DNA of 64,000 bases from assembly GCF_011045215.1 (NCBI RefSeq), contig NZ_CP049201.1; one strand, given 5' to 3'. Of this stretch, positions 1 to 63,527 are shown piece after piece. Each line of letters starts with the position of its first letter. Positions within the stretch are counted from its first letter, which is position 1. Made by a program: the position numbers and the translations under genes. Below the pieces are notes generated by a model. That model saw only the letters and a list, made by a program, of their open reading frames with translations, made no database searches and was not told the DNA's origin. The DNA is from Escherichia coli. Its GTDB lineage: Bacteria > Pseudomonadota > Gammaproteobacteria > Enterobacterales > Enterobacteriaceae.

Positions 1-209
1 TGAACAGGCTGATGGCATGGTTATCATCAAAACCAAGCTGATGGGTGAGATAGAGAATGAGTAAGGCACGCATGCCGTAAAAACTGAAGTACTCCCAGAT
101 TTGGATCGCCACGATATAGTATATCGCGCGCGGCTGTGAGGGTGTTTTCATGTGTTCTCCTTATGAGCAAAAAAGGGAAGTGGCAAGCCACTTCCCTTGT
201 ACGAGCTAA

Positions 210-2357
210 TTATTTTTTGCTTTCTTCTTTCAATACCTTAACGGTATAGCGGCCATCAGCCTGACGGTATGCACCGTGAATATCGGTTTCAAAGCCCGGA
301 TAGTGAGCGCCGATTTCACACAGCATCTGCAGGAACTCCAGAACCGGACGGCTTTCTTCGGTGATCATTTCACCCGGCATTACCAGAGGAACTCCCGGCG
401 GATATGGAAGGATCATATTGGCGTTAATACGACCTACCATTTCGTCGAGGTAAACTTCTTCGATCATACCGTGCAGCTCTTTCTGGAACGCAGCATACGG
501 AGTCATTACCATTGTCGGCAGCACTTCAAATGCGCGATACATCAGATCCGGCAGATTGTGGTGAACAATCCGTTTGTGGATATTCTGAGCCAGTTCCTGA
601 ATACGCATGTTTTCATAGAATTCAGGATCTTCACGATACAGAGACGGCAGCATGTTTTTCACACGCAGGTTCAGGTCGAACGCACGTTTGAAGTCAGTCA
701 GAGCACGCAGCAGGCTCAGTGCTTTGGTCTTATCGATACCGATGCTGAACAGGAACAGCAGGTTATACGGACCGGTTTTCTCAACAACGATGCCATGTTC
801 GTCGAGGTATTTCGCCACGATGCTGGCCGGAATACCAAAGTCGCTCATGGTGCCGTCTTTTTCCATCCCCGGAGTCAGCAGGGTGACTTTGATCGGGTCA
901 AGATACATGTGCTCGTTATCGATGTTTTTGAAGCCGTGCCAGGTGCTGTCAGAACGCAGCGGCCAGCATTCAGTCGTATCGATATGATCCGGCTGCCAAA
1001 CATCAAAGAACCAGCCATCAGATTCCGTTCTCAGACGTTTGATCTCTTTACGGAATTTGATCGCACGTTCAATGGAACCGTTGATCAGACGCTTACCAGC
1101 ATTACCTTTCATCATCGCCGCAGCGGTTTCAGTGGACGCCACGATACCGTAGTGTGGAGAAGTGGTGGTGTGCATCATGTAGGCTTCGTTAAAGGTTTCT
1201 TCGTTTACGTCACCTTTAACGTGGATCATGGAAGCCTGAGAGAACGCCGCCAGCAGTTTGTGAGTAGACTGGGTTTCGTAAATCACTTTCCCTTCTACAC
1301 GGCCACCGCTCATACCGCATTTACCTTCGTAAATCGGTGAGAAGTTGGTGTAAGGCACCCACGCGGAGTCAAAGTGGATGGATTTCACATCCAGTGTTTT
1401 CTTGATGAAGTCGGTGTTGTACAGCAGACCATCATAGGTAGAGTTAGTAATTACAGCATGTACCGGCCAGGTTGCGTTTGGTGTTTCCTTCACGCGCTTA
1501 GCAATGGTAGCGTGCTGGAATTCACTCTGTGGGATACCACCAAGAATACCGTAAGCGTTACGGGTCGGGCGGAAATAGATTGGCGTAACATCGCTCATCA
1601 TCATCAGGTGGGTCAGCGATTTGTGGCAGTTACGGTCAATCAGAATGGTGCTGCCTGCTGGAGCAGAGTACATACCAACAATTTTGTTCGCAGTGGAAGT
1701 ACCGTTGGTCACCATGTAGCTGCGGTCTGCGTTAAAGACGCGAGCGATATACTGTTCTGCTTCTTTGTGTGGACCACTGTGATCCAGCAGAGAACCCAGT
1801 TCAGATACTGAAATGGAAATATCAGATTTCATGGTATTCGGACCAAAGAAATCATAGAACAGGCTACCTACCGGGCTTTTCTGGAATGCAGTACCGCCCA
1901 TGTGACCAGGAGTACAGAAAGTATATTTACCTTCACGAACATATTTAAACAGTGCTTTAGTCAGCGGAGGCAGAATAGTGTTGATATATTCGTCAGTGGT
2001 CTGCTTGATCTTGTTAGCAATATCTTCAGCAGCACCTAGCGCATATTCAAAGAAGCTAATCTGTAAACGCAGGTCATTCAGGCTTACATCGAGAGTGGAA
2101 TACGTATTAGCGAACGCGTACAACGGCAGGTTCTCGTTCATTTTGCTAATTTCTTCGCACAGCTCGAGATTATATTTATCCCAGTCAAAAATAACGCCGC
2201 ACAGACGCGCATTGTTTTCGATCAGTTTTAATAAGTCGTCACGGTCGTTCGGGTAAACAATCTGGAAGTTCAGACGTTCAAGCGCGCGATGAAGTTCACG
2301 GATGGGTTCTTCTTTAAAATAAACCCCCATGTGATTCAATATTGCAATAACGTTCAT
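210..2357 (-). CDS. cadA: inducible lysine decarboxylase CadA (PLP-dependent)
   Basis: 715-aa ORF whose N-terminus MNVIAILNHMGVYFKEEPIRELHRALERLNF and overall sequence I recognise as E. coli CadA. GGAG sits 8 nt upstream of the ATG at 2357; the ORF-track start at 2396 is an upstream in-frame ATG adding 13 aa. Confidence 0.93.
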   Translation of the reverse strand: MNVIAILNHMGVYFKEEPIRELHRALERLNFQIVYPNDRDDLLKLIENNARLCGVIFDWDKYNLELCEEISKMNENLPLYAFANTYSTLDVSLNDLRLQISFFEYALGAAEDIANKIKQTTDEYINTILPPLTKALFKYVREGKYTFCTPGHMGGTAFQKSPVGSLFYDFFGPNTMKSDISISVSELGSLLDHSGPHKEAEQYIARVFNADRSYMVTNGTSTANKIVGMYSAPAGSTILIDRNCHKSLTHLMMMSDVTPIYFRPTRNAYGILGGIPQSEFQHATIAKRVKETPNATWPVHAVITNSTYDGLLYNTDFIKKTLDVKSIHFDSAWVPYTNFSPIYEGKCGMSGGRVEGKVIYETQSTHKLLAAFSQASMIHVKGDVNEETFNEAYMMHTTTSPHYGIVASTETAAAMMKGNAGKRLINGSIERAIKFRKEIKRLRTESDGWFFDVWQPDHIDTTECWPLRSDSTWHGFKNIDNEHMYLDPIKVTLLTPGMEKDGTMSDFGIPASIVAKYLDEHGIVVEKTGPYNLLFLFSIGIDKTKALSLLRALTDFKRAFDLNLRVKNMLPSLYREDPEFYENMRIQELAQNIHKRIVHHNLPDLMYRAFEVLPTMVMTPYAAFQKELHGMIEEVYLDEMVGRINANMILPYPPGVPLVMPGEMITEESRPVLEFLQMLCEIGAHYPGFETDIHGAYRQADGRYTVKVLKEESKK

Positions 2358-2436
2358 AGTCATATCTCCAGGTAAAAAAGGCCCCTCCCAACACATGGGA
2401 CAAAATGAAAGGAGGAGCCTCGGAAAATACTTTTAA

Positions 2437-3771
2437 TTAATGTGCGTTAGACGCTGTTTGGTTATCCATTGAGTGGCTCTGGCGCTCGTGCATTTTGCGA
2501 GCGTAGAACATCAGGATAATCAGGCTGACGATGAAGGTACCTGCCAGCTCGAAGGAGCTTGCGCCCATCAGCGCGATGAAGCAGAACACGCAACCCAGTA
2601 CAGAGCAGATCAGGCTGACAAAGTTGCGGATGTTAACGCCTTCAAAACGAATCAGGTCAACGCAAGAGTAGAAGTACGGCAGCATAGTCAGCAGTACTGC
2701 GATACCGGTCAGTTCACCGAACAGGTCAGATGCTTTACCACCGGCAGAGTTCATCAGAGTGATGAGGATCATCAGGGCAGTCATTTTCACTGCAGCCAGC
2801 AGCAGACCTTTTTTCGGAATACCGTTGCTGTCGACTTCACCATAAACTTTCGGGAAGTTACCGTCGTTAGCGGCACGTACACCTGCCTGGCCTACCAACA
2901 TCATCCAGGAGCCCAGAGAAGTCAGGCACGCAAAGGCGGTGAATGCAGAAACCAGCGGCGCAGCCCAGTTACCGAGGATAGTTGAAGCACTGATTGCAAA
3001 CGGAGCACCGGAAGCCGCCATTACAGAAGACGGATACATACCGGAAAGCACCTGAGTCGCAGCGATGTAAACAATACCTGCTAAACCAGTACCCAGCATG
3101 GTTGCCAGCGGAACGGTACGTTTCGGGTTTTTAACCATACCAGTACTTACAGCTGCGGATTCAACACCCACGAAGGCCCACAGGCAGAGCAGAATACTTT
3201 TAATGATCGCATGACCATCAGTGGTATCCGCAGTATTCCAGTTAGCTGCATAAGTTGCCGCATCAAACCAATGCCAGCCAACAATAGCAGTCATCACCAC
3301 AGGAATAAGAACCAGCACCAGACCAATAGTGGTTAAACGGCTTACCCAGGTACCGCCGAGCATATTTACAAAGGTAAATACCCAGACGATAGCAATACAG
3401 GCGATACCCGCCGGAACAGGATCATTTAATACTGGGAAGAAGGTGGAAAGATAAGATACAGCGGTAATACCAATCGCCAGGTTACCAATCCAGTTAGCAT
3501 GGTAATAAAGAACACCTGTCTGAAAACCAAATGCAGGGGAAATTTCTCCGGCATAAGCAATTGGGCCACCTTGTTGCGGGTTTTTTGTTGCCAGTCGGGC
3601 ATATACATACGCCAGCGACATTGCACCAATAATAGAGATAATCCAACCCCAGATAGCAATACCACCGATACTTGCTAGGTTCGCAGGTAATAATGCAATA
3701 CCGCTCCCCATCATATTACCGGCAACAACACCGGTACAGGCAAATAGCCCGATCTTCTTGGCAGAACTCAT
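2437..3771 (-). CDS. cadB: lysine/cadaverine antiporter CadB
   Basis: 444-aa polytopic membrane protein (MSSAKKIGLFACTGVVAGNMMGSGIALLPANLA...), APC-family permease, directly upstream of cadA in the canonical cadBA arrangement. AGGAG RBS before the ATG. Confidence 0.93.
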   Translation of the reverse strand: MSSAKKIGLFACTGVVAGNMMGSGIALLPANLASIGGIAIWGWIISIIGAMSLAYVYARLATKNPQQGGPIAYAGEISPAFGFQTGVLYYHANWIGNLAIGITAVSYLSTFFPVLNDPVPAGIACIAIVWVFTFVNMLGGTWVSRLTTIGLVLVLIPVVMTAIVGWHWFDAATYAANWNTADTTDGHAIIKSILLCLWAFVGVESAAVSTGMVKNPKRTVPLATMLGTGLAGIVYIAATQVLSGMYPSSVMAASGAPFAISASTILGNWAAPLVSAFTAFACLTSLGSWMMLVGQAGVRAANDGNFPKVYGEVDSNGIPKKGLLLAAVKMTALMILITLMNSAGGKASDLFGELTGIAVLLTMLPYFYSCVDLIRFEGVNIRNFVSLICSVLGCVFCFIALMGASSFELAGTFIVSLIILMFYARKMHERQSHSMDNQTASNAH

Positions 3772-4136
3772 GCTCTTCTCCTAATTTCATTTTTGAATTT
3801 GGAGTCCGGGTCATGATGTATAACTATTTCCTGACCAGACCAAACTGGCGATAAGATTACTCACGAAAAAAGGATTAATCCTAAAGATTAGGTGAAATAA
3901 CACAAAAGTTTCTGTAAGTGAGAACTTGAGGTTTTTTATTAACACATCAGGATCGCAAGTTGATATCATGAAAAGATAAACATTCAATGTTTACAATGGA
4001 TTGCGTGACATTGTCTGGTTAAATTTATGTAATAAAAATTATGCGGCAAATAAATTGCCGCAACATATTATACCAACAGGAACATACAAAAACTCAACAA
4101 CAAATATTCCCTGGCATGAATCAACCCGGGAGTTAC
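3772..4136 (-). promoter_or_regulatory. cadBA promoter/operator region (expected CadC-binding sites)
   Basis: 365-bp AT-rich intergenic region between cadC and cadB. From established knowledge this interval carries Pcad and the CadC target sites; individual sites were not mapped here. Confidence 0.45.
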
Positions 4137-5675
4137 TTATTCTGAAGCGAGAAATTTGTCGAGATAAGGTACAACATAAGGAACAGAAGTCTGGAATATA
4201 CCATTTTCAATCCAGTAAAGGGTGTTTGCCCCTGGGCGTAAATTAAAGGCGGTGAGATATGCATCAGCTGCTTCCCGATTCATCCCCTTCATTTCATAAA
4301 CCTTGCCAAGCAATACATAATTTAGCCAGGACATTTCAAGATCAATGCCAGTATTTATCGCCTGGTAAGACTCATCTGTTTTACCTTTTACCAGAGCACT
4401 GACCGCTTTTATTTGATATATAATGGACAGGTTATTCAATTCCGGTAGTGTAACAATGTTATCTATTTCTGTGTTCAGTGCTGCTAATTGTTTTTCATCT
4501 AAAGGATGTTGAGAATGGCGCACGATATCAACTAATGCTTTTTCTGCTCTCGCGTAGGTAAATTCTGGAGATGATTGAACAATCTCACCTAATAATTCAC
4601 TGGCACGGTTCAATGATTTATCATCGCCATGCAGTAAATAATCATGTGCCTGATAAAAATTAGTTAATAACGCACCACGATGAGGCAAAATTTGCTGGAG
4701 CGTCTCCTGCATTCGTTGTGGCCACGGTTGGTTTAACGCTTTTGATAAACTCTCCAGTAAATCATTTTGAATCGCCAGCTGATTACCGTTAGTGATGACA
4801 TAACGTTTATCCAGCATGGTTGAACCATCTGCATTGTCTACCAATTTTATCGACATAAAGCATTGTTGAGCACGGTATTGGCGCTGATTAACAAACGCAA
4901 TAGATAATGTTTTACCGGAACTGCTCGGTTCATCAATGTTGTAGTTGATTTTGTCATGCACCATAAAGGTGGAGAAGGTGTTAAGTGATGTCGCCACCAA
5001 ATCACCCACGCCTATCGCGTAAGAGAGCTGATACGGGGAACTCCAGCTGTTACAACTTTTATTTACCATATTAATGTCAATATCGCGTGGATTGAGCAAA
5101 ATACGCGATTTGCTCATCGGAAGACGTGTATCAAGACTTGAAAACGCTACCAGTGCTACACAGATACCTAAGGACAACAGGAAAAAAAACCATACCCAAA
5201 AGGTAGTGAATCGTTTGCTTTTAACTGGGGATTGTTCAGGTGGCGTTGCGGTGTTTTGAATGTTAAGGCTGTGGGAGGGAGAATCTGTGGCAGGAACCGC
5301 CTCTGGTATAGGGGGAGGCGAAGATAGCATTATTTCCTCTCCCTCTTCTTCGCTGTACCAGATAACCGGCACCATTAATTTATAGCCGCGCTTTGGTACA
5401 GTAGCGATATAGACAGGACTATCTTCATCATTATCTTTTAATGACTTACGTAGTTCTGAGATACTCTGCGTCACAACGTGATTGGTGACAATACTTCTCT
5501 TCCAGACATTATCGATAAGTTCATCCCTGCTAAGTACTTCGCCACTGTGTTGAGCAAAGAAAACCAGAAGATCGATTAATCTCGGCTCAAGGGTAAGTTG
5601 ACGCCCATTGCGGCTAATTTGGTTTATGGACGGAGTAACAAGCCATTCGCCAACGCGAACTACAGGTTGTTGCAT
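4137..5675 (-). CDS. cadC: ToxR-like membrane-integrated transcriptional activator CadC
   Basis: 512-aa ORF with an N-terminal winged-helix DNA-binding region (MQQPVVRVGEWLVTPSINQISRNGRQLTLEPRLIDLL), a central TM segment (FWVWFFFLLSLGICVALVAF) and a periplasmic sensor domain; matches E. coli CadC. Confidence 0.93.
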   Translation of the reverse strand: MQQPVVRVGEWLVTPSINQISRNGRQLTLEPRLIDLLVFFAQHSGEVLSRDELIDNVWKRSIVTNHVVTQSISELRKSLKDNDEDSPVYIATVPKRGYKLMVPVIWYSEEEGEEIMLSSPPPIPEAVPATDSPSHSLNIQNTATPPEQSPVKSKRFTTFWVWFFFLLSLGICVALVAFSSLDTRLPMSKSRILLNPRDIDINMVNKSCNSWSSPYQLSYAIGVGDLVATSLNTFSTFMVHDKINYNIDEPSSSGKTLSIAFVNQRQYRAQQCFMSIKLVDNADGSTMLDKRYVITNGNQLAIQNDLLESLSKALNQPWPQRMQETLQQILPHRGALLTNFYQAHDYLLHGDDKSLNRASELLGEIVQSSPEFTYARAEKALVDIVRHSQHPLDEKQLAALNTEIDNIVTLPELNNLSIIYQIKAVSALVKGKTDESYQAINTGIDLEMSWLNYVLLGKVYEMKGMNREAADAYLTAFNLRPGANTLYWIENGIFQTSVPYVVPYLDKFLASE

Positions 5676-6254
5676 AATAGAAACTCATTCGAAAAGGGAA
5701 TGATGCAATGATAATTGCCACAACCTATTTTTACCATCTATAGATGGGTTTATTTACATATTATTGGTGAATGCAAGACGTTATTTTTACCAGCCATAAA
5801 CTTCTTGATTACATGGTATTAAGAAAGGATTTTACTGAGAACCAGAAGTAATATTCCTTACCATCAAAATTCATCATCTTTGCCAAAGAAAAATGTTCAG
5901 AAAATAATCCATGGAAAATTGTCCGGAGCGCTTACTATTTTAATGGATTGTTAGTCTTTGCATGAGCAAGCGGACTGATACATTTCTCTTTGTTCTCATT
6001 CAGAAAATCTCATCAGTCGCCGTTCAGACCGGTGTTGTGCTTTATGGATGCGTTACGCTCCTGATGACGTCATTTGACGTTCAACAGCATCACGGGGTCG
6101 CACGACATTTCACGTCAGTTAGTGCTATAGCTCAGGAACAAATTTTCCCGAATTGGGATATGCCCGCAAATTGCTGGTGATGTGGGGAGAATCTGGTTGA
6201 GTTCGGTAGAATTGATTTGGCGGCAGAACGCTTAAATCGTGGCGTCCTGAAACG

Positions 6255-6282
6255 AAAAACGGACCTCCGTGGAGGTCCGTTT
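6255..6282 (-). terminator. GC-rich hairpin immediately 3' of the tRNA-Phe remnant (likely pheU terminator)
   Basis: Perfect inverted repeat aaaaacGGACCTCCgtGGAGGTCCgttt; T/A runs on both sides so it could act bidirectionally. Confidence 0.6.
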
Positions 6283-6291
6283 ATATGAATT

Positions 6292-6340
6292 TGGTGCCCG
6301 GACTCGGAATCGAACCAAGGACACGGGGATTTTCAATCCC
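6292..6340 (-). repeat. pheU: 3' 49-nt fragment of tRNA-Phe (pheU-type); candidate attachment-site direct repeat at the island junction
   Basis: The reverse complement of TGGTGCCCGGACTCGGAATCGAACCAAGGACACGGGGATTTTCAATCCC equals the 3' 49 nt of E. coli tRNA-Phe including CCA. Identity stops abruptly at 6341 (the tRNA would continue CTGCTCT; the window has ATGGCAA). Not a functional tRNA. Confidence 0.8.
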
Positions 6341-6439
6341 ATGGCAATGAGCTTCTGATAATTAAGAGTTCGTCAAGTAGTTAAAAGAGTTTTTTCATGT
6401 GCATCCAGTCTCAACTTATAAATGAGAAGGATGTGCGTA

Positions 6440-7315
6440 ATGAACATTCTGCCCGTTGTGTCCACCAAAGGTGGCGAAGGAAAATCAACCCAGTCTGCTA
6501 ACCTTGCCGGTTTTCTGGCGGATGCCGGCCTCCGTACCCTGCTGATAGACGGAGACCATGCCCAGCCCACGGCAAGCAATATCTTTCCGCTGACGTATGA
6601 AGCGCCGGCCGGTCTTTTTGAATTACTGATGCGCACGGCTGACCTCAGTCATCCCGACAACATCATTTCCCGCACGGCTATCGACGGCCTTGACCTGATA
6701 GTCTCCAATGACCCCCATGAACAACTGAAAACGGCCATGCTTCATGCGCCGGATGGTCGTCTCCGTCTGCGTAATGTGCTCCAGCATCCGCTTTTCCAGA
6801 GCTATGACGTCATTGTGGTGGATTCACAGGGCGCGCGTTCCGTCATGCTGGAAATGATTGTGCTGTCTGCCACGGAGTCTGTGGTGGGGATGGTGAATCC
6901 GGTTCTGCCGGATGTGCGTGAGTTCATTCGCGGCACAGTCAATGTCATGGAAAACCTGTTGCCCTACCGTGAACTGGGTATCCCCCTGCCGAAAGTCCGC
7001 ACCCTGGTTAACTGCATGGATTATACGGCGCTGGCCAGACAAACACTGGCGGAGCTGACCGACATTATTAACTCCGGTCGCTACAGCAAAGTGCTTCCGG
7101 AAGGCGCGGTCACCCTGCTTTCAACACAGATTTATGACCTGAATATTTACAAACAGGGACACGCAGCCGGCCAGCCGGTGCACCGCCTTGAAAAAGCGTC
7201 TGCCCGTCGCAGTGATTCTGCGCTGGTCACCATGCACAGCCTGGCCTGTGAGTTGTTGCCGGAGTGGAGTGAGTTTTTTGATGTACTGCTGGAAAACGGA
7301 GGTGAAAGCCTGTGA
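6440..7315 (+). CDS. ParA/Soj-family partition ATPase
   Basis: Deviant Walker A KGGEGKST near the N-terminus (MNILPVVSTKGGEGKSTQSANLA), then LLIDGDHAQ. AAGGA RBS 9 nt before the ATG at 6440. First gene inside the island, as in soj-terminal ICEs. Confidence 0.85.
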   Translation: MNILPVVSTKGGEGKSTQSANLAGFLADAGLRTLLIDGDHAQPTASNIFPLTYEAPAGLFELLMRTADLSHPDNIISRTAIDGLDLIVSNDPHEQLKTAMLHAPDGRLRLRNVLQHPLFQSYDVIVVDSQGARSVMLEMIVLSATESVVGMVNPVLPDVREFIRGTVNVMENLLPYRELGIPLPKVRTLVNCMDYTALARQTLAELTDIINSGRYSKVLPEGAVTLLSTQIYDLNIYKQGHAAGQPVHRLEKASARRSDSALVTMHSLACELLPEWSEFFDVLLENGGESL

Positions 7316-50778: not shown

Positions 50779-50820
50779 AGGGGATTGAAGGATGCTCTGA
50801 AATCCCCGATTTTATGTTTT
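50779..50820. terminator. bidirectional rho-independent terminator at the transfer-cluster/cargo boundary
   Basis: GGGGATTgaaggatgctctgaAATCCCC followed by a T-rich tract; sits between convergent genes. Confidence 0.6.
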
Positions 50821-50823
50821 TAA

Positions 50824-51231
50824 TTAATTTCCATCGCGCTCCCATTGTTCTCTCCATATAGGACGCTCCCATTCTTCTCTCCATATAGGACGCTTCCATT
50901 GTTCTCCTTCGTACTCAAAATTCAAGTCATGCCTCTTTTCAAGACTATCACATTGTGTATTAAATCCGGCACCAACACATCGAAGAATGTATGCAACAGC
51001 CCATGTAAACGCCAGACACCCGAGAACTGCCGTGATACTGAAGAGTGCACAAACCACAATTCCGGTTAATCCAATAGCCAGCGGAAGCCGTCCAGTCCAG
51101 GCTGGCAGATGCCTTTTTCTGGCCGCATGAATCCAGAAGTTGTCCCACCGACGAAGCGTTCTTACGAGTCGTTTCCACTGAATGGCAAACCGTTGTCCTC
51201 TGAGATAAGCGGCTTTGTTAGTCGTTTTCAT
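50824..51231 (-). CDS. membrane protein with C-terminal tandem WKRPIWRE-type repeats
   Basis: Two TM helices; the C-terminus contains EGEQWKRPIWREEWERPIWREQWERDGN, mirrored at DNA level by repeats at 50830-50900. Confidence 0.4.
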   Translation of the reverse strand: MKTTNKAAYLRGQRFAIQWKRLVRTLRRWDNFWIHAARKRHLPAWTGRLPLAIGLTGIVVCALFSITAVLGCLAFTWAVAYILRCVGAGFNTQCDSLEKRHDLNFEYEGEQWKRPIWREEWERPIWREQWERDGN

Positions 51232-51357
51232 AAGAAAAACTCCTAATTTTCAGTCCTATGTAATGAATTTAATGTTCAAACTATAAGCCATTTTTGTATA
51301 AATATAGGTGAAAAACCATACAGAATCTACCGATAAATGTCTCAAAAGGAGGTGTAA

Positions 51358-51921
51358 ATGTTGAGTAAAAAATTGTTATTGGTTTGTGTTTCATGCCTGG
51401 CGTTAACTGCCTGTTCTGTTGATGAAATTGCTTCGGTTAACAAGCAAATTAGTGATGGTGCTTTTGCTTTAACGGGGGCATTGCGTGGAAACTCATCGTC
51501 TGCGGATTCAAATGGAATGCCGGTTTTAAGTCAGGCGCAAAAACCGGCGACAAAATCCAGAACGCAGGAATATTCAGTACCCGTTGATGTTGATACAGCT
51601 GCTGCTCGCCTTAAACGTTATTACGAGTTTATATCTTTCGATGAAATTGAAGCTATCCGCAAAAAAAACACCAGTGGGGAATGGGCGGCATCAGCAATAC
51701 TTGAACAGAACCCTGTATGGGAGGTTATGCCCGGTAGTTATTATAAAATGGGTCAAAACTGGGACGATTATGATCATCTGACTATTGAAGTGGAAAAGAA
51801 TGGGGCGGGAAGTAAATTATATATTACGTTTAAATCGCCATCGGATAAAAGACTGAATAGTGAAAGTCTCAGGAAACTGATGTTGAATATTAAAGATGTT
51901 GCTGAAGGGAAAATTCGTTAA
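51358..51921 (+). CDS. AT-rich cargo lipoprotein (187 aa)
   Basis: Perfect AAGGAGG RBS; lipobox LALTAC; promoter-like TTCAAA-16-TATAAA upstream. Confidence 0.6.
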   Translation: MLSKKLLLVCVSCLALTACSVDEIASVNKQISDGAFALTGALRGNSSSADSNGMPVLSQAQKPATKSRTQEYSVPVDVDTAAARLKRYYEFISFDEIEAIRKKNTSGEWAASAILEQNPVWEVMPGSYYKMGQNWDDYDHLTIEVEKNGAGSKLYITFKSPSDKRLNSESLRKLMLNIKDVAEGKIR

Positions 51922-51941
51922 TTGATGATGAGATCGTGTTT

Positions 51942-52070
51942 ATGTTAAAGAAAATTGTGCTCGGATTGTTAATTGTTGCGCTGGTCGCTTTTTCTTTTGA
52001 TTTTGGTCGGCGGTGGGAGCTGTCTAAAACAGCAGAATATTGTTCTTCAATTGGCAAAAAAAATATCTGA
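51942..52070 (+). CDS. possible small membrane peptide (42 aa)
   Basis: Short ORF (MLKKIVLGLLIVALVAFSFDFGRRWELSKTAEYCSSIGKKNI) between the lipoprotein and DUF2726-like genes; weak RBS. Confidence 0.25.
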   Translation: MLKKIVLGLLIVALVAFSFDFGRRWELSKTAEYCSSIGKKNI

Positions 52071-52127
52071 TGCTGGTCCCGCATATTGCGTCGAAAAGTA
52101 ATCTGTAAATGGAGATGGTTTGATTTT

Positions 52128-52772
52128 ATGGACTATATTGTTATTTTCGTAGTAGGTTTTTTTATCGGTCTTGTATATGGTAGCGGTAAAAAATATGTAA
52201 AAGATAAACATGTGAGTTATTACCGTGAAAATCGTAATAACGATTTCCAGAAAGCAAATAGTAATATTGAAAAATATGAAAGAGATAATAAGGTATACAG
52301 AAATCCCCGCTGGGAGGGAAAAGATGAAATATTCTGGGGGATGATGAATTCGCAAATTTGCCTTGAAAGAAAACGTGGGCCATATTTATGCACTGATCCT
52401 GAAAATAAGTATTTGTTGAAATTAACTGAGTGGTTTGGTGACATTTGTTACATAAATTGTCAGGTGTCTTTAGGGCAATTGGTTGATTTTAAGGCTAAAA
52501 ATAATAAGCAATTTACTGAGGAGGAAAGAAGGCGGTTTTTTAGTATCTATGCTTCGATGGCAATGGATTATGTACTTGTGTACAAAAAAACAAAAAGAAT
52601 TGTTTGTGTCATAGAGCTTAATGATGGTTCACATAATAAAGAGGAACGAATCGAACGAGACAGAAAAGTTGCTGAGTTATTGAAACGTTGCGATATTTCA
52701 TTTCTCCCGGTGTCTATTGATAAAATGGATATTAAACCCGACATATGGAAAGACAGGGGAAATAGAGAATAA
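52128..52772 (+). CDS. membrane-anchored DUF2726-like nuclease-fold protein
   Basis: GGAG RBS; N-terminal TM helix; C-terminal motif MDYVLVYKKTKRIVCVIELNDGSHNKEERIERDRKVAELLKRCDISFLPV, matching the D..(I/V)E.DG.H...D..R pattern of DUF2726/DUF559-type endonuclease folds (recalled). Confidence 0.55.
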   Translation: MDYIVIFVVGFFIGLVYGSGKKYVKDKHVSYYRENRNNDFQKANSNIEKYERDNKVYRNPRWEGKDEIFWGMMNSQICLERKRGPYLCTDPENKYLLKLTEWFGDICYINCQVSLGQLVDFKAKNNKQFTEEERRRFFSIYASMAMDYVLVYKKTKRIVCVIELNDGSHNKEERIERDRKVAELLKRCDISFLPVSIDKMDIKPDIWKDRGNRE

Positions 52773-52914
52773 ATAATTAATTTGTATCTACAGAATATTA
52801 ATGCTCAGGCTGGTTAACCCCGGCCTTTTTATTTTATATACAGACGTTCCTGTGAGACTATTGACATATAAAAGCCCGTCTTGCTAATCTTTTCCCGCTT
52901 TAATGTCGCTGTAT

Positions 52915-53101
52915 GCGACCATCCAAATCCCCAGTAGTCTGAGAGGGGAGCCTTCGGGCGGCTACCAGCCAATGCTTTAACGATCTGAGAGAAGCGCCTT
53001 CGGGTGATCGTAATGTTCTCGTAGCCTGGAAGAGAACGCCTTACGTGGCGGTACATCCGTTTAACCTCTGGGAACGGATATCACGGAACCGTGATTGAGG
53101 T
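52915..53101 (+). ncRNA. structured repeat element R2 (homolog of R1 and R3)
   Basis: Same unit architecture as R1 with compensatory stem substitutions (TCCCC/GGGGA in place of GTTTC/GAAAC; ACGATC/GATCGT in place of GCAGTC/GACTGC) and the conserved 3' domain GGTACATCCGTTTAACCTCTGGGAACGGATATCACGGAACCGTGATTGAGGTC. Confidence 0.45.
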
Positions 53102-53763
53102 CGTGCTGGCCTGAGGCCAGTTGTTCTATGCAGGCATCCTGCAGATGCCATGATTCTTTACTTACAGGCTTATCACGCCTGCATATCAATACGTTAAGTC
53201 TTTCAGAGACATGTCTGAACGAACTGACGTCTTTAATCTGTTCGGGCATTCGCCCCGGGCTTCTTACGACTGTACGCACTGCATAAGGCCATCTGAAATC
53301 TGGCCGCTTGCGTGCGTATGTGGAGTTTGAAGCTGCGCGGCGTCACTTTTGTCGGCGTGTAACGATGACAAAGTGACGCATGCGCGTCTGCTTTACGAAC
53401 CCGCACAAACCGTCGCGTCACGGGATGTTTTTTAACATTTGAAGAAGTGACCAGACGTGAGAGTGTTTTTTCAACCTTCTCTGCAAACGTACAGACGATA
53501 CCGTGAATAACGTTCATCGACCGTTCTTCTTGCAGAATTTTATTGTTTTTTAAGGAGTTTTATGTAGTGAGATGCCGAACCGGCGATACCACTTATTAGG
53601 GGTGGTATCGGGGGCGACCTGGAAACAGGTACAGCGAATGCTGCAGTCGGTGTGCAACACCGGTTTGTTACCCCTCAATACCTAAACAGTCTGCGCTACC
53701 CTGGCGCTCAGGCACTCATTACCCGAAGGATCGCAACGCTTAACCGTGTCGCCAGGGAGAATG

Positions 53764-53812
53764 CAGATGAATTTTGCTGTTGTGTTCACGGCACAACAGC
53801 AAAATTCATCTG
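53764..53812. promoter_or_regulatory. perfect 21-7-21 palindrome upstream of the recombinase gene (candidate operator or recombination site)
   Basis: CAGATGAATTTTGCTGTTGTG-ttcacgg-CACAACAGCAAAATTCATCTG, followed directly by the 14-bp palindrome GCTGTACGTACAGC at 53812-53825, 25 bp upstream of the GAGGAGG RBS. Confidence 0.5.
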
Positions 53813-53850
53813 CTGTACGTACAGCTGTTTAAGACAAAGAGGAGGTATCT

Positions 53851-54753
53851 GTGTCCAGACGTGAAAAATTACTGAAACAGGATTTGGTTGCTCATATCCG
53901 GAAAGACCGGGGGAGTTTCAAGAAGCTGAGTGACTATTCCCGGATCATGCACCGGTTTGCGGAAAGACTGGCTAAACTGAATATACAGATCAGTTCTGCT
54001 GCGCAGGTAAAAGTGCGGCATATTGAATTATATATGAACAGCAGGAGTGATGTTTCAAAGCGAACCAGAGAAAATGAAATGTCTGCAATACGGGTTATGT
54101 TACGTCAGGCCGGTAAACATAAAATGGCAGATCCTGAACATCCCCGTCTCAGCAATAAGGCGTTAGGTATTTCAGGAGGAAGCCGTAAAGGGACAAAGAA
54201 ATTAATTACGGATGAGCGTTTCCGGGAAATTCTTCAGCGCGTGGAAGCAAAAGATAAAGGGGTGGCAGCTGTTGTTAAACTGTCACGTTATCTCGGTCTG
54301 AGAAATGAAGAAGCTGTCCAGTCGGCCAAATCGTTACGGACGTGGAAAAAAGCGTTACAACGGGGAGATGAAAAAATAAGGGTGATTTTTGGTACGAAAG
54401 GGGGACGGGAAAGAATGACGACGGTTGTTGACCGGGATAAAGTTCTTGATGCTGTTAATTACGCACTCAAATATGCCAGTGAGCATAATGAACGTCTGAT
54501 AGACAGAGATAATCTTAAGTCGGCAATGGATTATTATCTTAATACGTTACGACGTTATGGAGAACTGAAAGGCGGAGATGAAACCGCACACAGTTTTCGG
54601 TACAGTTACGCCGCAAGTGCCATGAAATATCATATTATGAATGGTTACAGTTATAAGGAGGCACTTGCACTGACATCAATTGATCTTGGTCATGGTGATG
54701 GCAGAGGTCGATATATTGAACAGGTTTATTGTCAGTTATTAGGCTATGAGTAA
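53851..54753 (+). CDS. tyrosine site-specific recombinase (phage-integrase/Xer-like catalytic domain)
   Basis: GTG start with GAGGAGG RBS. Catalytic-domain boxes: LSRYLGLRNEEAVQ (box I Arg), HSFRYSYAASAM (H-x-x-R), GHGDGRGRYIEQVY (catalytic Tyr). Confidence 0.65.
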   Translation: MSRREKLLKQDLVAHIRKDRGSFKKLSDYSRIMHRFAERLAKLNIQISSAAQVKVRHIELYMNSRSDVSKRTRENEMSAIRVMLRQAGKHKMADPEHPRLSNKALGISGGSRKGTKKLITDERFREILQRVEAKDKGVAAVVKLSRYLGLRNEEAVQSAKSLRTWKKALQRGDEKIRVIFGTKGGRERMTTVVDRDKVLDAVNYALKYASEHNERLIDRDNLKSAMDYYLNTLRRYGELKGGDETAHSFRYSYAASAMKYHIMNGYSYKEALALTSIDLGHGDGRGRYIEQVYCQLLGYE

Positions 54754-55109: not shown

Positions 55110-55157
55110 CTTGACATCCATCTTTTGTGCCTTAAAAATATACAGGCTAACTTTGTT

Positions 55158-55414
55158 ACCTTCGGGTGACCATCCAATGTTTCGGTAGTCTGAGAGAAAC
55201 GCCTTCGGGTGACTACAGTTATCTTCGGATAACCATCCAAATCCCCGGTAGTCTGAGAGGGGAGCCTTCGGGCGACTACCAGCCAATGCTTTGACGATCT
55301 GAGAAAAGCGCCTTCGGGTGATCGTAATGTCTCCGTAGCCTGAAAGGGGACGCCTTAGAGGGTGGTACATCCGTTTAACCTCTGGAAACGGATATCACGG
55401 AACAGTGATCGAGG
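55158..55414 (+). ncRNA. structured repeat element R3 (three units plus terminal domain)
   Basis: Largest copy: a partial unit, then GTAGTC/GACTAC, GGTAGTC/GACTACC and ACGATC/GATCGT units, and the conserved 3' domain ending ..GATCGAGGTC followed by TTTTAT. Confidence 0.45.
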
Positions 55415-58229: not shown

Positions 58230-58613
58230 ATGGGACTCGATATTTACTTTATGGCTCGTGATAACCATCAGAATGGTGCCGTTGTGGAAACACAGGAACA
58301 TCAGGAAGTGGGGGCTTTCCGTAAGGTGATGCCGCTTCTGACATGGTTCCGTAACCATACTGGTGCTTCGGATGAGCAGCATACTTTCCCTGTAACACGC
58401 CGGTCACTGGCTGCATTATTGCGTGACCTCAGTATGCTGATGCCGGGAAACTGCCACAGCCTGTTTCCTTATGTCAGAAACTCGCGTTTACGGGGTGAAG
58501 ACTATGCTGATGATTACTGGTATGACGTGAATGACGTAAAAGCGTGGGTCAGCGATACGCTGAAGACGTTTGATTTTGAGCGTCGTTCACTGGTGATGCT
58601 GGCGTTGTGGTAA
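58230..58613 (+). CDS. hypothetical protein (127 aa)
   Basis: GGAGA RBS before the internal ATG. Confidence 0.4.
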   Translation: MGLDIYFMARDNHQNGAVVETQEHQEVGAFRKVMPLLTWFRNHTGASDEQHTFPVTRRSLAALLRDLSMLMPGNCHSLFPYVRNSRLRGEDYADDYWYDVNDVKAWVSDTLKTFDFERRSLVMLALW

Positions 58614-58742
58614 GTCTGAGACCGCATAATATGAACCGCTGGCGGAGGGGGTAACCTGACCGCCATTCATCCCGTGAGGGCATTGTTCCTCACGGGACAG
58701 TGCCCTCTTTTTACATCTGATACAAAAAGAGGAGCGTAAACC

Positions 58743-59690
58743 ATGTCTGAATGGTGCCAGAATCGTTTTGAAATTACCGGTAAGTCAGTCTGTCTGGATG
58801 TGCTGACGCAGTGGATTGAAGGATGTGAGATACCGCGTTACCGCCATGCCATACAGCAGAGTATACAGCTGTTTCTGGCCGGTTGTGCAGGGCTGGTGAA
58901 ACCCACCCGGACGACGCAGTATCCGCCATATCCGGCGCTGGTTCGTCACGGTACTGGGATGTCATCTCCGGCTAACCAGGCATTTGAACAGTGGCTGGGG
59001 CTGCTGGTAAAAGATGCCGTACTGGATGAAGAGACGATAAAGACCATTGACCGCCTTTATCACCAGACATGTATTGGCGCAGTCCGCTGGGGGAATCTGC
59101 CGGATAATGCCCGGGAGATAATCACCGCGTTAATGCGTTGTCAGTATTCTGACTGGTTTGGCCTGGTCGGACTGAGCGAACACATTGATGCCGGAGCCTG
59201 CTGGAGCCGGCTGTCGGATTACCCGGAGCAGGCGCAGCCCTGTGACATGCTGATGGTCATACCCTCCCGTCTGGCCACAGAGCTGAATGGTTCAGGTGGA
59301 CTGCTGCAGGGTATTTCCACCACGACCAGCCTTTACAGCCGGATATACGGTGTGGAGTGGCCATCAGGTCACAATGTCCGCTGGGTGCGTGATGAGATGA
59401 GCAGTCTGGTGCTTCTGACGGATACGCCCTGGTATCCGCCTTCAGGTGAGCTGGTTGGTGAAATCTCGAAGGTGTTCGACTGTGAGATACGGCACTGGTA
59501 CAGCGAACCTGTCCGGGGCATACAGGGTTACAACTGTTATGACGGTGGTGAACATACGGACAGTGACCCGCAGGCTGAATGGCCGGGGAGGGAAACACTT
59601 CCTCAGCCCCGGCTGTATCTGGTGGAGGAGCGCGCTGAAGAACAGACAGAAGCCGCACCTTTACCGGTTCCGCTGGCTTCAGGCCAGTAA
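58743..59690 (+). CDS. hypothetical protein (315 aa), Cys-rich N-terminal half, acidic C-terminus
   Basis: GAGGAG RBS. Confidence 0.45.
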   Translation: MSEWCQNRFEITGKSVCLDVLTQWIEGCEIPRYRHAIQQSIQLFLAGCAGLVKPTRTTQYPPYPALVRHGTGMSSPANQAFEQWLGLLVKDAVLDEETIKTIDRLYHQTCIGAVRWGNLPDNAREIITALMRCQYSDWFGLVGLSEHIDAGACWSRLSDYPEQAQPCDMLMVIPSRLATELNGSGGLLQGISTTTSLYSRIYGVEWPSGHNVRWVRDEMSSLVLLTDTPWYPPSGELVGEISKVFDCEIRHWYSEPVRGIQGYNCYDGGEHTDSDPQAEWPGRETLPQPRLYLVEERAEEQTEAAPLPVPLASGQ

Positions 59691-59811
59691 TTAACCTCAG
59701 GGTGTCACATTCGTGGCACCCGTTTTTTCCTGTCATCTTTCATTTCAGCCCGAAGGGGAACACCTGTTCCTCCCCGGGGCCATGTGTTCCCTGTTTTTTA
59801 CGGAGAAACAC

Positions 59812-60504
59812 ATGGCCACCTTTATCGACCATCAGAAGGCCTTCATTTCGCTGTTTAATCAGACCGCCCGTTATCACAAACGCCATAAGGTGTTTGAAGA
59901 CTTTGTCAGCTGCAGTGTGATTGCCCTGGAGAACCGGCTTCAGTTCAGTGAGGCACGGGAGCAGAAGTACCTGCGAATCGTCAGTGGTTATGAAAAGCAG
60001 GATGTTATCAACATGGCGCATTTGCTTGCTCATGTCATTGAGGGACTGGAGCAGGGATTCTGTGACTTTCTGGGCAGCGTGTTCATGCAACTGGAGCTGG
60101 GGGATAAATACCGGGGCCAGTTTTTCACGCCCTGGAGTGTGGCCAGAATGATGGCACAGATGCAGCTGGGGAATGTGACGACGCTGTTTGAGAACAAGCC
60201 CTTTATCACGCTCCGTGAACCGGCCTGTGGTGCCGGCAGTATGATACTGGCTATGGCTGACACCCTGAACCATTCGGGATATCCGGCATATCGCAGGATG
60301 TGGGTGTCGGCAACGGATATTGACCCGCTGGCAGCCGGCATGGCGTATATACAACTGTCGCTGTGTGGTGTGGCCGGTGAAGTGGTGATTGGCAACTCAT
60401 TGTGTAATGAGCGACGCCGGGTACTGCTGACGCCCGGGCATTACCTCGGGAACTGGTCATATCGTCTGCGTCATTCTCAGGAACAGGTCACAGCTGATGC
60501 CTGA
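59812..60504 (+). CDS. short methyltransferase-like protein: HsdM-type SAM-binding motif without the NPPF/Y catalytic motif
   Basis: REPACGAGSMILA (motif I-like) and ..ATDIDPLAAGMAYIQLSLCGVAGEVVIGNSL, but the ORF ends about 30 aa later and is followed by a clean terminator. Confidence 0.45.
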   Translation: MATFIDHQKAFISLFNQTARYHKRHKVFEDFVSCSVIALENRLQFSEAREQKYLRIVSGYEKQDVINMAHLLAHVIEGLEQGFCDFLGSVFMQLELGDKYRGQFFTPWSVARMMAQMQLGNVTTLFENKPFITLREPACGAGSMILAMADTLNHSGYPAYRRMWVSATDIDPLAAGMAYIQLSLCGVAGEVVIGNSLCNERRRVLLTPGHYLGNWSYRLRHSQEQVTADA

Positions 60505-60517
60505 TTTTTTATCACTA

Positions 60518-60549
60518 CGCCAGTCTTCGGGCTGGCGTTATTATATTTG
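60518..60549 (+). terminator. rho-independent terminator
   Basis: CGCCAGtcttcgggCTGGCG followed by TTATTATATTTG. Confidence 0.6.
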
Positions 60550-60863: not shown

Positions 60864-63089
60864 ATGTCTAAGCCGGAAAACGGCCAACAGCTGCCCGCCA
60901 TCTGTTGGCCGGTGCCTAAAAATAACCGGGGCGGGGAGTTCAGTAATCTCGAGGAGATGTTGGCGCATCTGGAGGGCGAGGCCACCGGGCACTGGCTGAT
61001 TGGCCGTAATGGTATGTGGCACGGGGGAATTCATATCACGGATATCACGACTCCGTGGTGTGCGCTCAGCGGTCAGTCGATGAATGAGGCGGTGGATTTT
61101 CCTGTGCCGTTTAAGGGAGAGCAGCCCGTGCGCTGCATGGCGGATGGTGAGGTGGTGGCGTACCGGATAAACCGGGATTCTCTCAGCGTGCCGTGGTACT
61201 GGGGGGATTTACACTACTCCGGGTCTTTTGTACTCATTCGCCATCGTATTCAGCCAGGGGAAACGGCAGAGAGCGGGCTGACCTTTTACACCCTGTATAT
61301 GCACCTCGCGCCCTGGCTGGCTTACCCGGAGCAGGACAGTACGGCGTTTAAGGTCGCAGACAGACAGTATCTGAATGCGTATGCGGACGCGTCCCGGCAG
61401 TGGGTGGTGGCAGAGTTGCCACCCGGTACACGTGTGATATGGGACAAAGCGGTAAGTGCAGACACCATGACAGGGAGCAACGGTCGGCAGTATGCGCGCG
61501 TTACGCTGGCGGAGCCGGTGACGGGCAGGATGAACCTGAACGCCGGAGACCGGGTATGGACAGTATGCGATAAAGGGAATCTGGTTCCGGTTCGTGACAG
61601 TATCATCCGTCCGGCGTGGTGGTCGCCGTTCCTGCCGCCGTCACGCGAAACGGTACAGTTTGATACGGTGGTGTGTCCGACACCTTACCCGATTAAAGCC
61701 GGTGCCCCGGTGGGGCATCTGGGCTATTTTCAGGTACCCACGGATAACGGGCATGAAAAACGCTATCAGGTGCATATCGAATGCCTGACAACGGACGACC
61801 TGCCGCGCTTCCTGAGCAACCCGGAAGGTGTGGGGCGTGACACTCCCGCCTTTGCCCGTTGTCCGAAGGATATACCGGTGTATCTGAAATATACGGACGG
61901 AGAAATACACAAGAGCCTGGTAACCACGGAGAGCGAAACGGTGATGGCGCTGTCAGGTCAGGTGGTGACGGACAAAGAGGGTAAACGCTACTGGTCGGGG
62001 GGAGGGGTATCACGCGGACTGCTGGCGGAGTCAGATGTGCAGTTGTTATCCAGGTATGACCTGGCTGACCGGGGTTTTGAGGCCACGGAGGATAACCCGG
62101 TGAGCTTTGACCATCTCGACGGAAAGAGACAGCCGAAGGGGCTGGTGAGGACGATTTTTGAGCGTTTTTTCAACGTGGCGGATAATGACGGTAAGCTCTA
62201 CAGCAAAATAGTGGCATTCAACTACCGGCAGCTGCTGGACCAGATTGATGACGCCAAATCCCCCCGGTATAACCCGGAACTGTACCGGCGCGCGGTACAG
62301 AACCCGTCAATGCGTGAGCATCTGTATCGTTTGTGCGTGAAACATCCCAGCGAGTGGTATTACTCGTCGGAGTCTTCGGTATGGAAAGCATTTTTTACGC
62401 CCCAACTGAAAAGAGACGCCACGGAGTGGTACGCCTACAGTATGAAATTTTTGACGGATCTCCGCTGGATGTACCGTGTGGCCGGAATGGTGGAAAATCC
62501 GTGGCATATGCACCCACTGGTATTTCTTGATGCTATTAATGATATAGGTATGACTCTCGATGAAGCCAGAGTTCGGGCATTTATGAGAATGATTCGAGTT
62601 GGCGAAGGGACTGTTGGTGAGGTTGGGTATGAAACATTGTTTGGTAAGCAGTCATTCATAAAAGATTATCATAAAGATTTTAGTGATCACCCGAACATAA
62701 TAATTACTAGAGGTACATTAAAGTCTTCTGCGGCTGGAGCATATCAAGTAATGGGTTATACATGGAATGATCCTAACATGTTGTTTTATCGCAAAAAATA
62801 TGGGATCGTGGATTTTTCTCCGAAATCACAAGATGAGTTTTGTGTGCTAATCCTTAAATATAAAAGGAAAGGGGCTTTAAAACTTATCATTGATGGTGAC
62901 ATTGATGGGGCTTTAGATATTTTGAGTTACGAATGGGCAAGTCTTCCCCCTGCCAGATACCCTCAACCAACCAAGAGTAAGAGTGAGGTTATGTCCTTAT
63001 ACAATAAGTATTTATTAGAAGAGCTCTTAGGGGAGACAGATCTTCACCTGCCAATCGGCTACATAAAACAAGTTTATAATGGTGTGTAA
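60864..63089 (+). CDS. two-part protein (741 aa): GC-rich N-terminal region fused to an AT-rich C-terminal lambda-lysozyme-R-like lytic transglycosylase domain; candidate peptidoglycan-targeting toxin or bacteriocin
   Basis: The C-terminal ~170 aa align with recalled phage lambda R: GEGT (catalytic Glu), FSDHP, KSSAAGAYQ, DFSPKSQD, KGALKLIIDGDIDGALD, WASLP. Base composition changes sharply near 62550. The N-terminus has HxH-type motifs (WHGGIHIT; YMHL) of uncertain meaning. Confidence 0.6.
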   Translation: MSKPENGQQLPAICWPVPKNNRGGEFSNLEEMLAHLEGEATGHWLIGRNGMWHGGIHITDITTPWCALSGQSMNEAVDFPVPFKGEQPVRCMADGEVVAYRINRDSLSVPWYWGDLHYSGSFVLIRHRIQPGETAESGLTFYTLYMHLAPWLAYPEQDSTAFKVADRQYLNAYADASRQWVVAELPPGTRVIWDKAVSADTMTGSNGRQYARVTLAEPVTGRMNLNAGDRVWTVCDKGNLVPVRDSIIRPAWWSPFLPPSRETVQFDTVVCPTPYPIKAGAPVGHLGYFQVPTDNGHEKRYQVHIECLTTDDLPRFLSNPEGVGRDTPAFARCPKDIPVYLKYTDGEIHKSLVTTESETVMALSGQVVTDKEGKRYWSGGGVSRGLLAESDVQLLSRYDLADRGFEATEDNPVSFDHLDGKRQPKGLVRTIFERFFNVADNDGKLYSKIVAFNYRQLLDQIDDAKSPRYNPELYRRAVQNPSMREHLYRLCVKHPSEWYYSSESSVWKAFFTPQLKRDATEWYAYSMKFLTDLRWMYRVAGMVENPWHMHPLVFLDAINDIGMTLDEARVRAFMRMIRVGEGTVGEVGYETLFGKQSFIKDYHKDFSDHPNIIITRGTLKSSAAGAYQVMGYTWNDPNMLFYRKKYGIVDFSPKSQDEFCVLILKYKRKGALKLIIDGDIDGALDILSYEWASLPPARYPQPTKSKSEVMSLYNKYLLEELLGETDLHLPIGYIKQVYNGV

Positions 63090-63527
63090 ATGAAAAATAT
63101 ATTCCTTATATTGATATTTGTATCATCATTTACTTATGCTGGTTCTGATTTTGGAACTTGGGGAACATCATGTGATGATAATGGGTTCATTCTTTCATTA
63201 AAAGAAGATTCATCTCCATTTGTTGTTAGTGATAATCAGATAGTTGTATCCATACATTCAAGAAGGATTAACCATAAAGTTATTGATGTTTTTTTTGATG
63301 ATACATTAGATCTTGGGATAGGAGGCATGGGGTTTAACTGGGGGGATGTTGATAAAACCAAAAAAATAGCCGAGTTAACATATTCTGAAAATAATAAATG
63401 GCTGATGAAATGGTTTGGTTTTTGGGATGCAAAAAAAAAGACACGTTTTTGGGTGAAAGAGCCTGATTTTATCCAAACATACGCAAAAAATAACGTCATA
63501 ACATTGATTAAATGCGAAGAACAGTGA
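63090..63527 (+). CDS. AT-rich secreted small protein (145 aa); candidate cognate immunity protein
   Basis: ATG overlaps the upstream stop (TAAATG); signal peptide MKNIFLILIFVSSFTYAG; same low-GC composition as the lysozyme-like domain. Confidence 0.5.
   Translation: MKNIFLILIFVSSFTYAGSDFGTWGTSCDDNGFILSLKEDSSPFVVSDNQIVVSIHSRRINHKVIDVFFDDTLDLGIGGMGFNWGDVDKTKKIAELTYSENNKWLMKWFGFWDAKKKTRFWVKEPDFIQTYAKNNVITLIKCEEQ

Follow-up and report, generated by a model that had tools for sequence, protein, structure and literature searches.

A stretch of 64,000 nucleotides of the Escherichia coli contig NZ_CP049201.1 (assembly GCF_011045215.1; hereafter the window, meaning the whole stretch analyzed) was found to carry, within an ICE (integrative and conjugative element), a gene for a 230 aa protein which appears to be one half of an HsdM-type DNA methyltransferase (MTase) and is referred to here as the half-MTase. 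The protein is predicted to keep the helical N-terminal domain of HsdM, the first four strands of the fold (beta1–beta4) and an intact pocket for S-adenosylmethionine (SAM), with the catalytic motif IV exchanged for a TPxH signature. It is proposed to be a non-catalytic establishment or anti-restriction factor interfering with SAM-dependent restriction of the HsdM type. The chance of this proposal being correct is considered to be about even, an estimate which refers to the class of function and not to a precise mechanism.

The initial annotation of this DNA had described an HsdM-type SAM-binding motif, a following conserved segment ending in GNSL and a stop about 30 aa later. Both elements were located, the motif (REPACGAGSMILA) at aa 135–147 and GNSL at aa 194–197, from where 33 aa lead to the C-terminus. 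A longer open reading frame (ORF) beginning at GTG 59713 was rejected as the gene, all homologues sharing the Met start at 59812; this ORF would also cross the terminator hairpin of the upstream gene. The hairpin found 3′ of the half-MTase gene has its stem at 60517–60538, with 6 GC pairs among its 9 bp and a folding energy of −16.8 kcal/mol (z −3.1, RNA folding). Its U-tract is interrupted (TATTATATTT), so that the terminator is a good one but falls short of the perfectly "clean" structure first described. The view that the short gene does not result from an assembly or frameshift truncation held up well. Sequencing error, frameshift and misassembly were ruled out by the recurrence of the exact 230 aa protein on three independent metagenome contigs, by a cluster of 1,326 sequences (228 aa, 95% identical to the half-MTase) and by the absence of any downstream ORF continuing the protein in any frame.

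The match of the half-MTase to the Pfam family N6_Mtase (PF02384) covers aa 99–201 only, equivalent to positions 23–119 of a model of 311 (E 2e-6), and the score against NCBIfam hsdM (TIGR00497) is 15.7 bits compared with a cut-off of 242.75. A sequence search of the PDB gave a weak match to EcoR124 HsdM over motifs X–I. PADLOC and NCBIfam returned nothing beyond weak partial MTase matches, and in PHROGs the protein matches phrog_5696 (E 4e-70), which is listed as being of "unknown function." Structure prediction, proposed at the outset as the check for a partial Rossmann fold, gave a confident four-stranded model with AlphaFold2 (AF2; built on 25 homologues, pLDDT 92.5, pTM 0.90). A helical bundle (aa 7–128) is followed by beta1 (132–136), beta2 (163–169), beta3 (188–195) and beta4 (200–206), and then by a single terminal helix (215–229). 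The complete seven-stranded class I fold is thus not present in the 230 aa of the half-MTase, as compared with the 529 aa of EcoKI HsdM.

Motifs X, I, II, and III are all present, with a conservation of 93–100%. Motif X is the part of gamma-class MTases which binds the methionine moiety of SAM. When the protein was aligned manually with EcoKI HsdM, GQFFTP was paired with GQYFTP, EPACGAG with DPAAGTAG, WVSATDID with FIGLELVP and VVIGNSL with AIRLGNTL. Among 138 aligned sequences, almost all of which represent different 50%-identity clusters, the most conserved positions include D30, E50, Y53, Y60, D85-x-L-G88, GQFFTP, P137, G140, G142, D169, Q181, G194, and L197. N195 and W215 are invariant in 25 close homologues and less strict among the 138 sequences, with W215 being at least 90% conserved in alignment A2.

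The sequence TPxH was assigned to the slot of motif IV because it lies at the C-terminal end of beta4. This assignment is based on the strand positions of the AF2 model and on the manual alignment, in which RRVLLTPGHY is paired with AHIVATNPPF; the alignments obtained by hmmsearch against the PDB and by hhalign against EcoKI HsdM reach only motifs X–I or up to motif III. Of the 138 sequences, 99% have T207 and 91% have P208. The pattern [NDS]PP[FYW] is absent from the half-MTase and from every credible ORF of the window. The protein had been described as lacking the catalytic motif, which is right in that there is no NPPF, but the slot is occupied by an invariant TPxH. In gamma-class MTases it is the Asn/Asp of motif IV which holds the target amino group in position. 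Because this residue and the base-binding half of the fold are missing, it is most likely that the half-MTase does not methylate adenine in DNA; from its conserved motifs it most likely binds SAM or S-adenosylhomocysteine (SAH). The D-x-L-G helix and motifs X, I, II, and III are common to the half-MTase, HsdM (EcoKI, EcoR124I) and gamma-class MTases. The half-MTase differs from HsdM in possessing TPxH instead of NPPF and in ending after beta4 and one helix, without beta5–beta7, motifs V–VIII, the target-recognition domain or the C-terminal HsdS-binding helices, and it has no hsdS or hsdR partner genes.

A word-indexed search identified 264 homologues down to 55% identity, nearly all of 220–235 aa and distributed across the Enterobacterales. 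A profile search of 1.84 billion representatives extended the family to 5,397 50%-identity clusters with E<=1e-3, of which 3,519 reached E<=1e-10 and 1,413 reached E<=1e-30. Family statistics refer to the best 149 representatives, retrieved from these 5,397 clusters, which span the profile in full and whose median length is 269 aa. The suggestion to look for longer homologues with a preserved motif IV was followed, and none was found among the 264 word-index matches and the best 149 of the 5,397 clusters. The sole [NDS]PP[FYW] in the homologous domain of these 149 is one chance DPPW in a loop, and a true NPPF is confined to a separate, fused MTase domain. Comparison of the window gene with its orthologues gave a dN/dS (Nei-Gojobori) of 0.088 with that of K. 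michiganensis (dS 1.6) and of 0.10 with that of Dickeya. The short architecture is that of a conserved family under purifying selection, with members in Proteobacteria, Firmicutes, phages of Bacteroidetes and one archaeal plasmid.

Members of the family are almost always labeled "N-6 DNA methylase" or "type I R-M subunit M" (R-M, restriction-modification) in databases. These names are misleading, since the state of motif IV, the incomplete fold, and the scores and partner genes all speak against membership of the MTases. Some members are instead labeled "integrase" or "phage integrase" (representatives P0078 and P0113; UniProt A0A2K8QJ44, B6VNI2, and A0A2S0L085). They come from Pantoea, Xenorhabdus, Dickeya, and Photorhabdus, and the label appears to be an annotation-transfer error.

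The family is carried almost exclusively on mobile elements, where it is located in establishment, leading or replication modules. A tblastn search of PLSDB detected it in 2,211 of 72,556 records (~3%), 68% of these being conjugative. The homologues of three F-type plasmids (one of them pKpQIL-like) are oriented toward oriT and located on its leading side at a distance of one to three genes, as part of the array ssb-parB-psiB-psiA-...-[homologue]-DUF932 or antirestriction-SLT-oriT-traM. On the MOBP plasmid pYR4, the homologue and ardA belong to one array, which is located upstream of mobA-traI. An Enterococcus plasmid has ssb adjoining the homologue, an Acinetobacter plasmid has it beside parAB and an H-NS gene, and in the Faecalibacterium phage Taranis it lies within a module of ssb, DnaD, helicase loader, RuvC, and ParB genes. 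Other carriers are Pseudomonas plasmids, ICEs of E. coli, Klebsiella, Dickeya, and Pantoea, and phages of both Gram-positive and Gram-negative hosts. No adjacent hsdS or hsdR was found in any of the 18 contexts examined, the window included. Families annotated as "N-6 DNA methylase" are listed, uncharacterized, in a survey of leading regions published in Nature in 2024 (PMC11541004).

Fusions and C-terminal tails provide a second view of the family. Several clusters of ~650 aa (P0132, P0147, and P0160) combine ArdcN, a zincin metallopeptidase and a CbtA-like segment with the half-MTase domain; UniProt entries of the ArdC-fused type come from Photorhabdus and Dickeya. P0214 and P0255 join the half-MTase domain to a small complete MTase containing NPPF; in P0214 this MTase shares 36% identity (E 8e-22) with the 187 aa MTase of the pKpQIL leading region. 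Past a low-complexity linker, the last 15 residues contain Q[LMIVF]x[LMIF][FLW] in 51 of the 149 representatives, and a looser form of this pattern in 89, compared with 0.6 of 149 for shuffled tails. Variants in the family include QLSLF, QLALF, QMSLF, and QLDLF, and tails of this kind were seen in the Enterococcus (EQLALF at the terminus), Pseudomonas (LQYALF) and phage Taranis (GQLTFF) homologues. At the family level they are documented in representatives P0121–P0269 and at the loci L005 (6941–7789), L006 (6986–7747), and L018 (5965–6858). A terminal QL[SD]LF is used to bind the clamp by Pol II/IV/V, Hda, TrfA, and transposases; the terminal motif is common to many members of the half-MTase family and is absent from the window protein, which ends in ...RLRHSQEQVTADA. 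The QLxLF-type tail is the canonical beta sliding-clamp binding motif (Dalrymple et al., 2001). No such tail was present in the 120 close homologues listed (nearly all Enterobacterales where an organism is named) or in the IncF homologues. The ArdC fusion, the MTase fusion and the clamp tail all suggest that the family acts on entering or replicating DNA.

The role proposed for the half-MTase is one in establishment or anti-restriction. The half-MTase would be made early in the recipient, soon after DNA entry, and would most likely load SAM (or SAH) and leave DNA unmethylated. It would act at the element's own DNA, probably alongside ArdC-type functions, and may interfere there with SAM-dependent restriction complexes which share the HsdM/N6_Mtase module. 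The genomic context, namely leading regions, ArdA, ArdC, and antirestriction neighbors and the fusions with ArdC, supports such a role. ArdC (of R388/pSa), with its ssDNA-binding ArdcN domain and metalloprotease, occupies the same genomic niche and is a neighbor or near-neighbor of the half-MTase in related ICEs; the two have no sequence or fold similarity. ArdC is reported to work in the recipient against hsdRMS (PMC7213743). Searches with Pfam, NCBIfam, PHROGs, and PADLOC, as well as those of PDB sequences and by fold, gave no homology of the half-MTase to ArdA, ArdB/KlcA, ArdC, or Ocr.

Several observations weigh against this proposal. A strict ligand pocket combined with an invariant T/P/H would fit an enzyme better than a passive decoy, and the C-terminal helices by which HsdM contacts HsdS are missing. 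SAM binding itself is predicted from motif conservation. The clamp motif and an ArdC fusion are both missing from the window protein, and the window has no ArdC gene; the "leading region" of this ICE is so called by analogy with F-type plasmids. The links to ssb, replication and the clamp would be just as compatible with a function in replication or recombination outside defense. Finally, the full-text literature search yielded no paper describing the truncated family.

The initial annotation had suggested a decoy for R-M subunits. The context does fit anti-restriction, but the strongest conservation is found in the SAM pocket and the HsdS-binding parts are absent, so that simple titration of R-M subunits is plausible as one candidate mechanism only. 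A bolder reading can be put forward tentatively and is rather doubtful. Here the family would be a new class of pseudo-MTase encoded by mobile elements, acting as a SAM-loaded mimic of HsdM on the nascent DNA of the element, where it would either poison SAM-dependent restriction complexes based on HsdM (type I, possibly also BREX or type IIG) or be the missing adaptor of leading-region ssDNA MTases to the replisome. Its delivery could be free, as for the protein in the window, or could take place via the clamp-binding tail or by fusion to ArdC.

It is unlikely, though worth weighing, that the half-MTase is an active SAM-dependent enzyme of an unorthodox kind. It could be a DNA or ssDNA MTase in which TPxH stands in for NPPF and which possibly forms a dimer or has its fold completed by a partner, or it could carry out another SAM chemistry, such as a cleavage of SAM which starves SAM-dependent restriction. 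Phage T3 SAM lyase cleaves SAM with this effect. The strongest constraint falling on the SAM pocket and on T207, P208, and H210 is the pattern expected of an active site. Orphan MTases are also abundant in leading regions (PMC11541004), and the ssDNA MTases of these regions need a host partner for activity (PMC7736820). However, the Asn/Asp which positions the target amino group is missing from the motif IV slot, where T207 is 99% conserved, and beta5–beta7, motifs V–VIII and a DNA-recognition domain are absent. The orphan ssDNA MTases (M.EcoGIX/M.BceJIII type and the 187 aa MTase of pKpQIL) resemble the F-type half-MTase homologues in being leading-region genes; they have a complete Rossmann fold and NPPF, and the half-MTase has neither. 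A split enzyme completed by an adjoining gene was ruled out, there being no neighbor conserved across ICEs, F-type, Acinetobacter and Enterococcus plasmids, and phages. The complete MTase fused in P0214 and P0255 suggests that the half-MTase domain lacks this activity itself, and a tether to the clamp or to ArdC is ill-suited to a soluble SAM-degrading enzyme.

A low probability is also given to a non-catalytic role unrelated to the evasion of defense, either as an adaptor or regulatory subunit of an MTase or as a replisome or clamp factor. In the first case the half-MTase would be the partner of a small orphan MTase, in the manner of METTL14 with METTL3 or DNMT3L with DNMT3A; in the second it would aid complementary-strand synthesis or replication of the incoming element. 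METTL14 and DNMT3L are MTase-derived folds with a degenerate catalytic motif which are kept under selection. They have a complete fold and form obligate heterodimers with an active paralogue, in contrast to the half-MTase, whose pocket is apparently intact and for which no partner was identified. Such a role finds support in the fusion of some members to small complete MTases resembling those of leading regions, in the QLxLF clamp-binding tails of at least a third of the family representatives, and in the location of homologues in the replication module of phage Taranis and beside ssb or ParAB on plasmids. It also agrees with the work of Fomenkov et al., in which the ssDNA MTases of leading regions seem to require an intermediary to the replisome and a missing one was suspected (PMC7736820). 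Against it stand the lack of the clamp motif in the window protein and the lack of an amino-MTase with motif IV anywhere in the 64-kb window with which it could pair. Furthermore, the nearest functional associates in the ICEs are ArdC and Api92 and not replication proteins.

A regulator was also among the earlier suggestions; a transcriptional or post-transcriptional regulator of ICE genes with SAM as its signal is very improbable. It would suit a small protein with a SAM pocket encoded at the end of an operon-like array, but searches with Pfam, NCBIfam, and PHROGs and by fold revealed neither a helix-turn-helix nor any other domain for binding nucleic acids, and the replicons carrying the family are unrelated, as are their regulatory circuits. 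Least credible of all, and rejected on the grounds of conservation, is a functionless remnant of a type I modification methylase, a decayed methylase having also been suggested earlier: although the protein matches only the first third of the N6_Mtase model and lacks the catalytic motif, the same short form is found in thousands of clusters whose members are not independent truncations, dN/dS is 0.09–0.10, the gene has its own ribosome binding site and terminator, the AF2 fold is confident and compact with a family-specific C-terminal helix, and hsdS and hsdR are not near in any context examined.

The carrier of the half-MTase gene is an E. coli ICE of the pKLC102/PAGI-2 (ICEclc/SPI-7/YAPI) type. 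It was identified as such because ICE proteins (TIGR03756/TIGR03757), TraG-N, and TraI are annotated in the corresponding homologous region of E. coli KE41 and because of the upstream neighbor (Table 1), whose product matches Api92 of the Yersinia YAPI island (PDB 2ijr, E 3e-117). The left end of the window (200–5700) is E. coli cadA-cadB-cadC at 99.9% identity, and the ICE begins right after cadC. There is no tRNA gene in the window and a tRNA attachment site should therefore lie at the far (integrase) end of the ICE. DNA homologous to the ICE was found in 83 of 5,426 complete E. coli genomes. Related ICEs have the order [small genes]-(ArdC)-DUF1281/Api92-(DUF5983)-[half-MTase]-variable cargo-UvrD-TraI_2 (MOBH)-integrase, and in all those examined at most one gene separates api92/DUF1281 from the half-MTase gene. 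The genes of this ICE point toward uvrD-traI-int, a geometry like that of the F-type plasmid homologues.

The half-MTase gene ends a plus-strand array of small genes, at the head of which STAXI and EFASI motifs were found with Rfam scores well above the gathering scores. STAXI is named after its associated Ssbp, Topoisomerase, Antirestriction, and XerDC Integrase genes, and has been proposed to act possibly as structured ssDNA (PMC2864571). Neither ArdC nor an MTase of the fused type was found in the window by tblastn. In one contig encoding the identical half-MTase protein, ArdC is inserted just 5′ of api92. Klebsiella ICEs likewise possess ArdC (ArdcN and MPTase-PolyVal) just 5′ of api92/DUF1281, where this window has none; the presence/absence polymorphism corresponds to 58613–58743 of the window compared with 3047–4024 of locus L012 and 5883–6842 of locus L010.

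Table 1. Features of the half-MTase gene, its protein motifs and the adjoining array (positions are those of the window).
Feature	Position	Strand	Remarks
STAXI RNA/ssDNA motif, copy 1	52904..53057	+	Rfam
EFASI RNA motif	53564..53721	+	Rfam
STAXI RNA/ssDNA motif, copy 2	55154..55279	+	Rfam
api92/DUF1281	58743..59690	+	315 aa, upstream neighbor
Terminator-like hairpin	59700..59731	+	between api92/DUF1281 and half-MTase gene
Shine-Dalgarno GGAG	59802..59805	+	6 nt 5′ of ATG; read from sequence
half-MTase coding sequence	59812..60504	+	230 aa; ATG 59812, TGA 60502-60504; predicted helical N-domain, beta1-beta4, C-terminal helix
Motif X, G102-Q-F-F-T-P107	60115..60132	+	Q103, F105, T106, P107 conserved 96-99%
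Motif I, E136-P-A-C-G-A-G142	60217..60237	+	putative SAM-binding loop after beta1
Motif II, acidic D169	60316..60318	+	end of beta2, putative ribose-binding position; manual EcoKI HsdM alignment
Motif III, G194-N-S-L197	60391..60402	+	counterpart of EcoKI HsdM GNTL
T207-P-G-H210 (TPxH)	60430..60441	+	predicted structural slot of catalytic motif IV (NPPF)
Intrinsic-terminator-like hairpin and U-rich tail	60517..60548	+	9-bp stem, UUCG loop

A number of further features of the region were recorded. The last three genes of the array are each followed by a GC-rich hairpin and T-run (58676–58707, 59700–59721, and 60517–60538), and five terminator-like sites were counted in 2.5 kb compared with an expectation of 2.1; partial terminators may punctuate the array. 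A perfect 22-nt inverted repeat with a 7-nt spacer (53763–53813) lies 38 nt 5′ of an ORF of 300 aa (53851–54753) and is a possible operator or structured element. This ORF corresponds in position and length to an "integrase domain-containing protein" of the KE41 ICE and also to the PF12834/PF12835 genes of loci L010 and L011. Between traG and the STAXI region, an AT-rich patch (50800–52800) has a GC content of 34–41%, compared with 51–57% for the ICE backbone. Its ORFs encode 135 aa (minus strand), a lipoprotein-like 187 aa and 228 aa, the last matching phrog_14167 and being the positional counterpart of a 211 aa PF10881 (DUF2726) gene in Klebsiella ICEs. Directly downstream of the half-MTase gene, 60864–63089 encodes a 741 aa protein whose C-terminal 150 aa match endolysin/lysozyme PHROGs. 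Its stop is overlapped by the start of an AT-rich ORF of 145 aa (63090–63527) with a signal-peptide-like N-terminus. The two look like a toxin/immunity-type cargo pair at a variable spot of the ICE.

The sequences of the family are already present in databases, and what is newly recognized with respect to the literature searched is a distinct, truncated and probably non-catalytic family, together with its TPxH signature, its fusions to ArdC and MTases and its clamp-binding tails. Neither the ArdC fusion nor the clamp motif is described in this literature, and the pLS20 establishment-gene paper and the ICEPan paper make no mention of the half-MTase gene. The newly described leading-region protein YfjB/HerB was also compared and is an unrelated ParB-like protein.

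The half-MTase is best described as an MTase-derived, pseudoenzyme-like module in the anti-defense or establishment toolkit of conjugative elements. Annotation-based surveys of leading regions are likely to count its genes as orphan MTases. If the half-MTases are non-catalytic, part of this "orphan MTase" category is misassigned and the methylome or R-M predictions made from such labels are wrong. The family also has clinical reach: carbapenemase plasmids of the pKpQIL type in Klebsiella carry homologues, and on clinically important plasmids these belong to the genes which reach the recipient first. Should the proposed role be true, the half-MTase would be a new player in the survival of transferred DNA during its first minutes in the recipient and a possible target for blocking the spread of plasmids.

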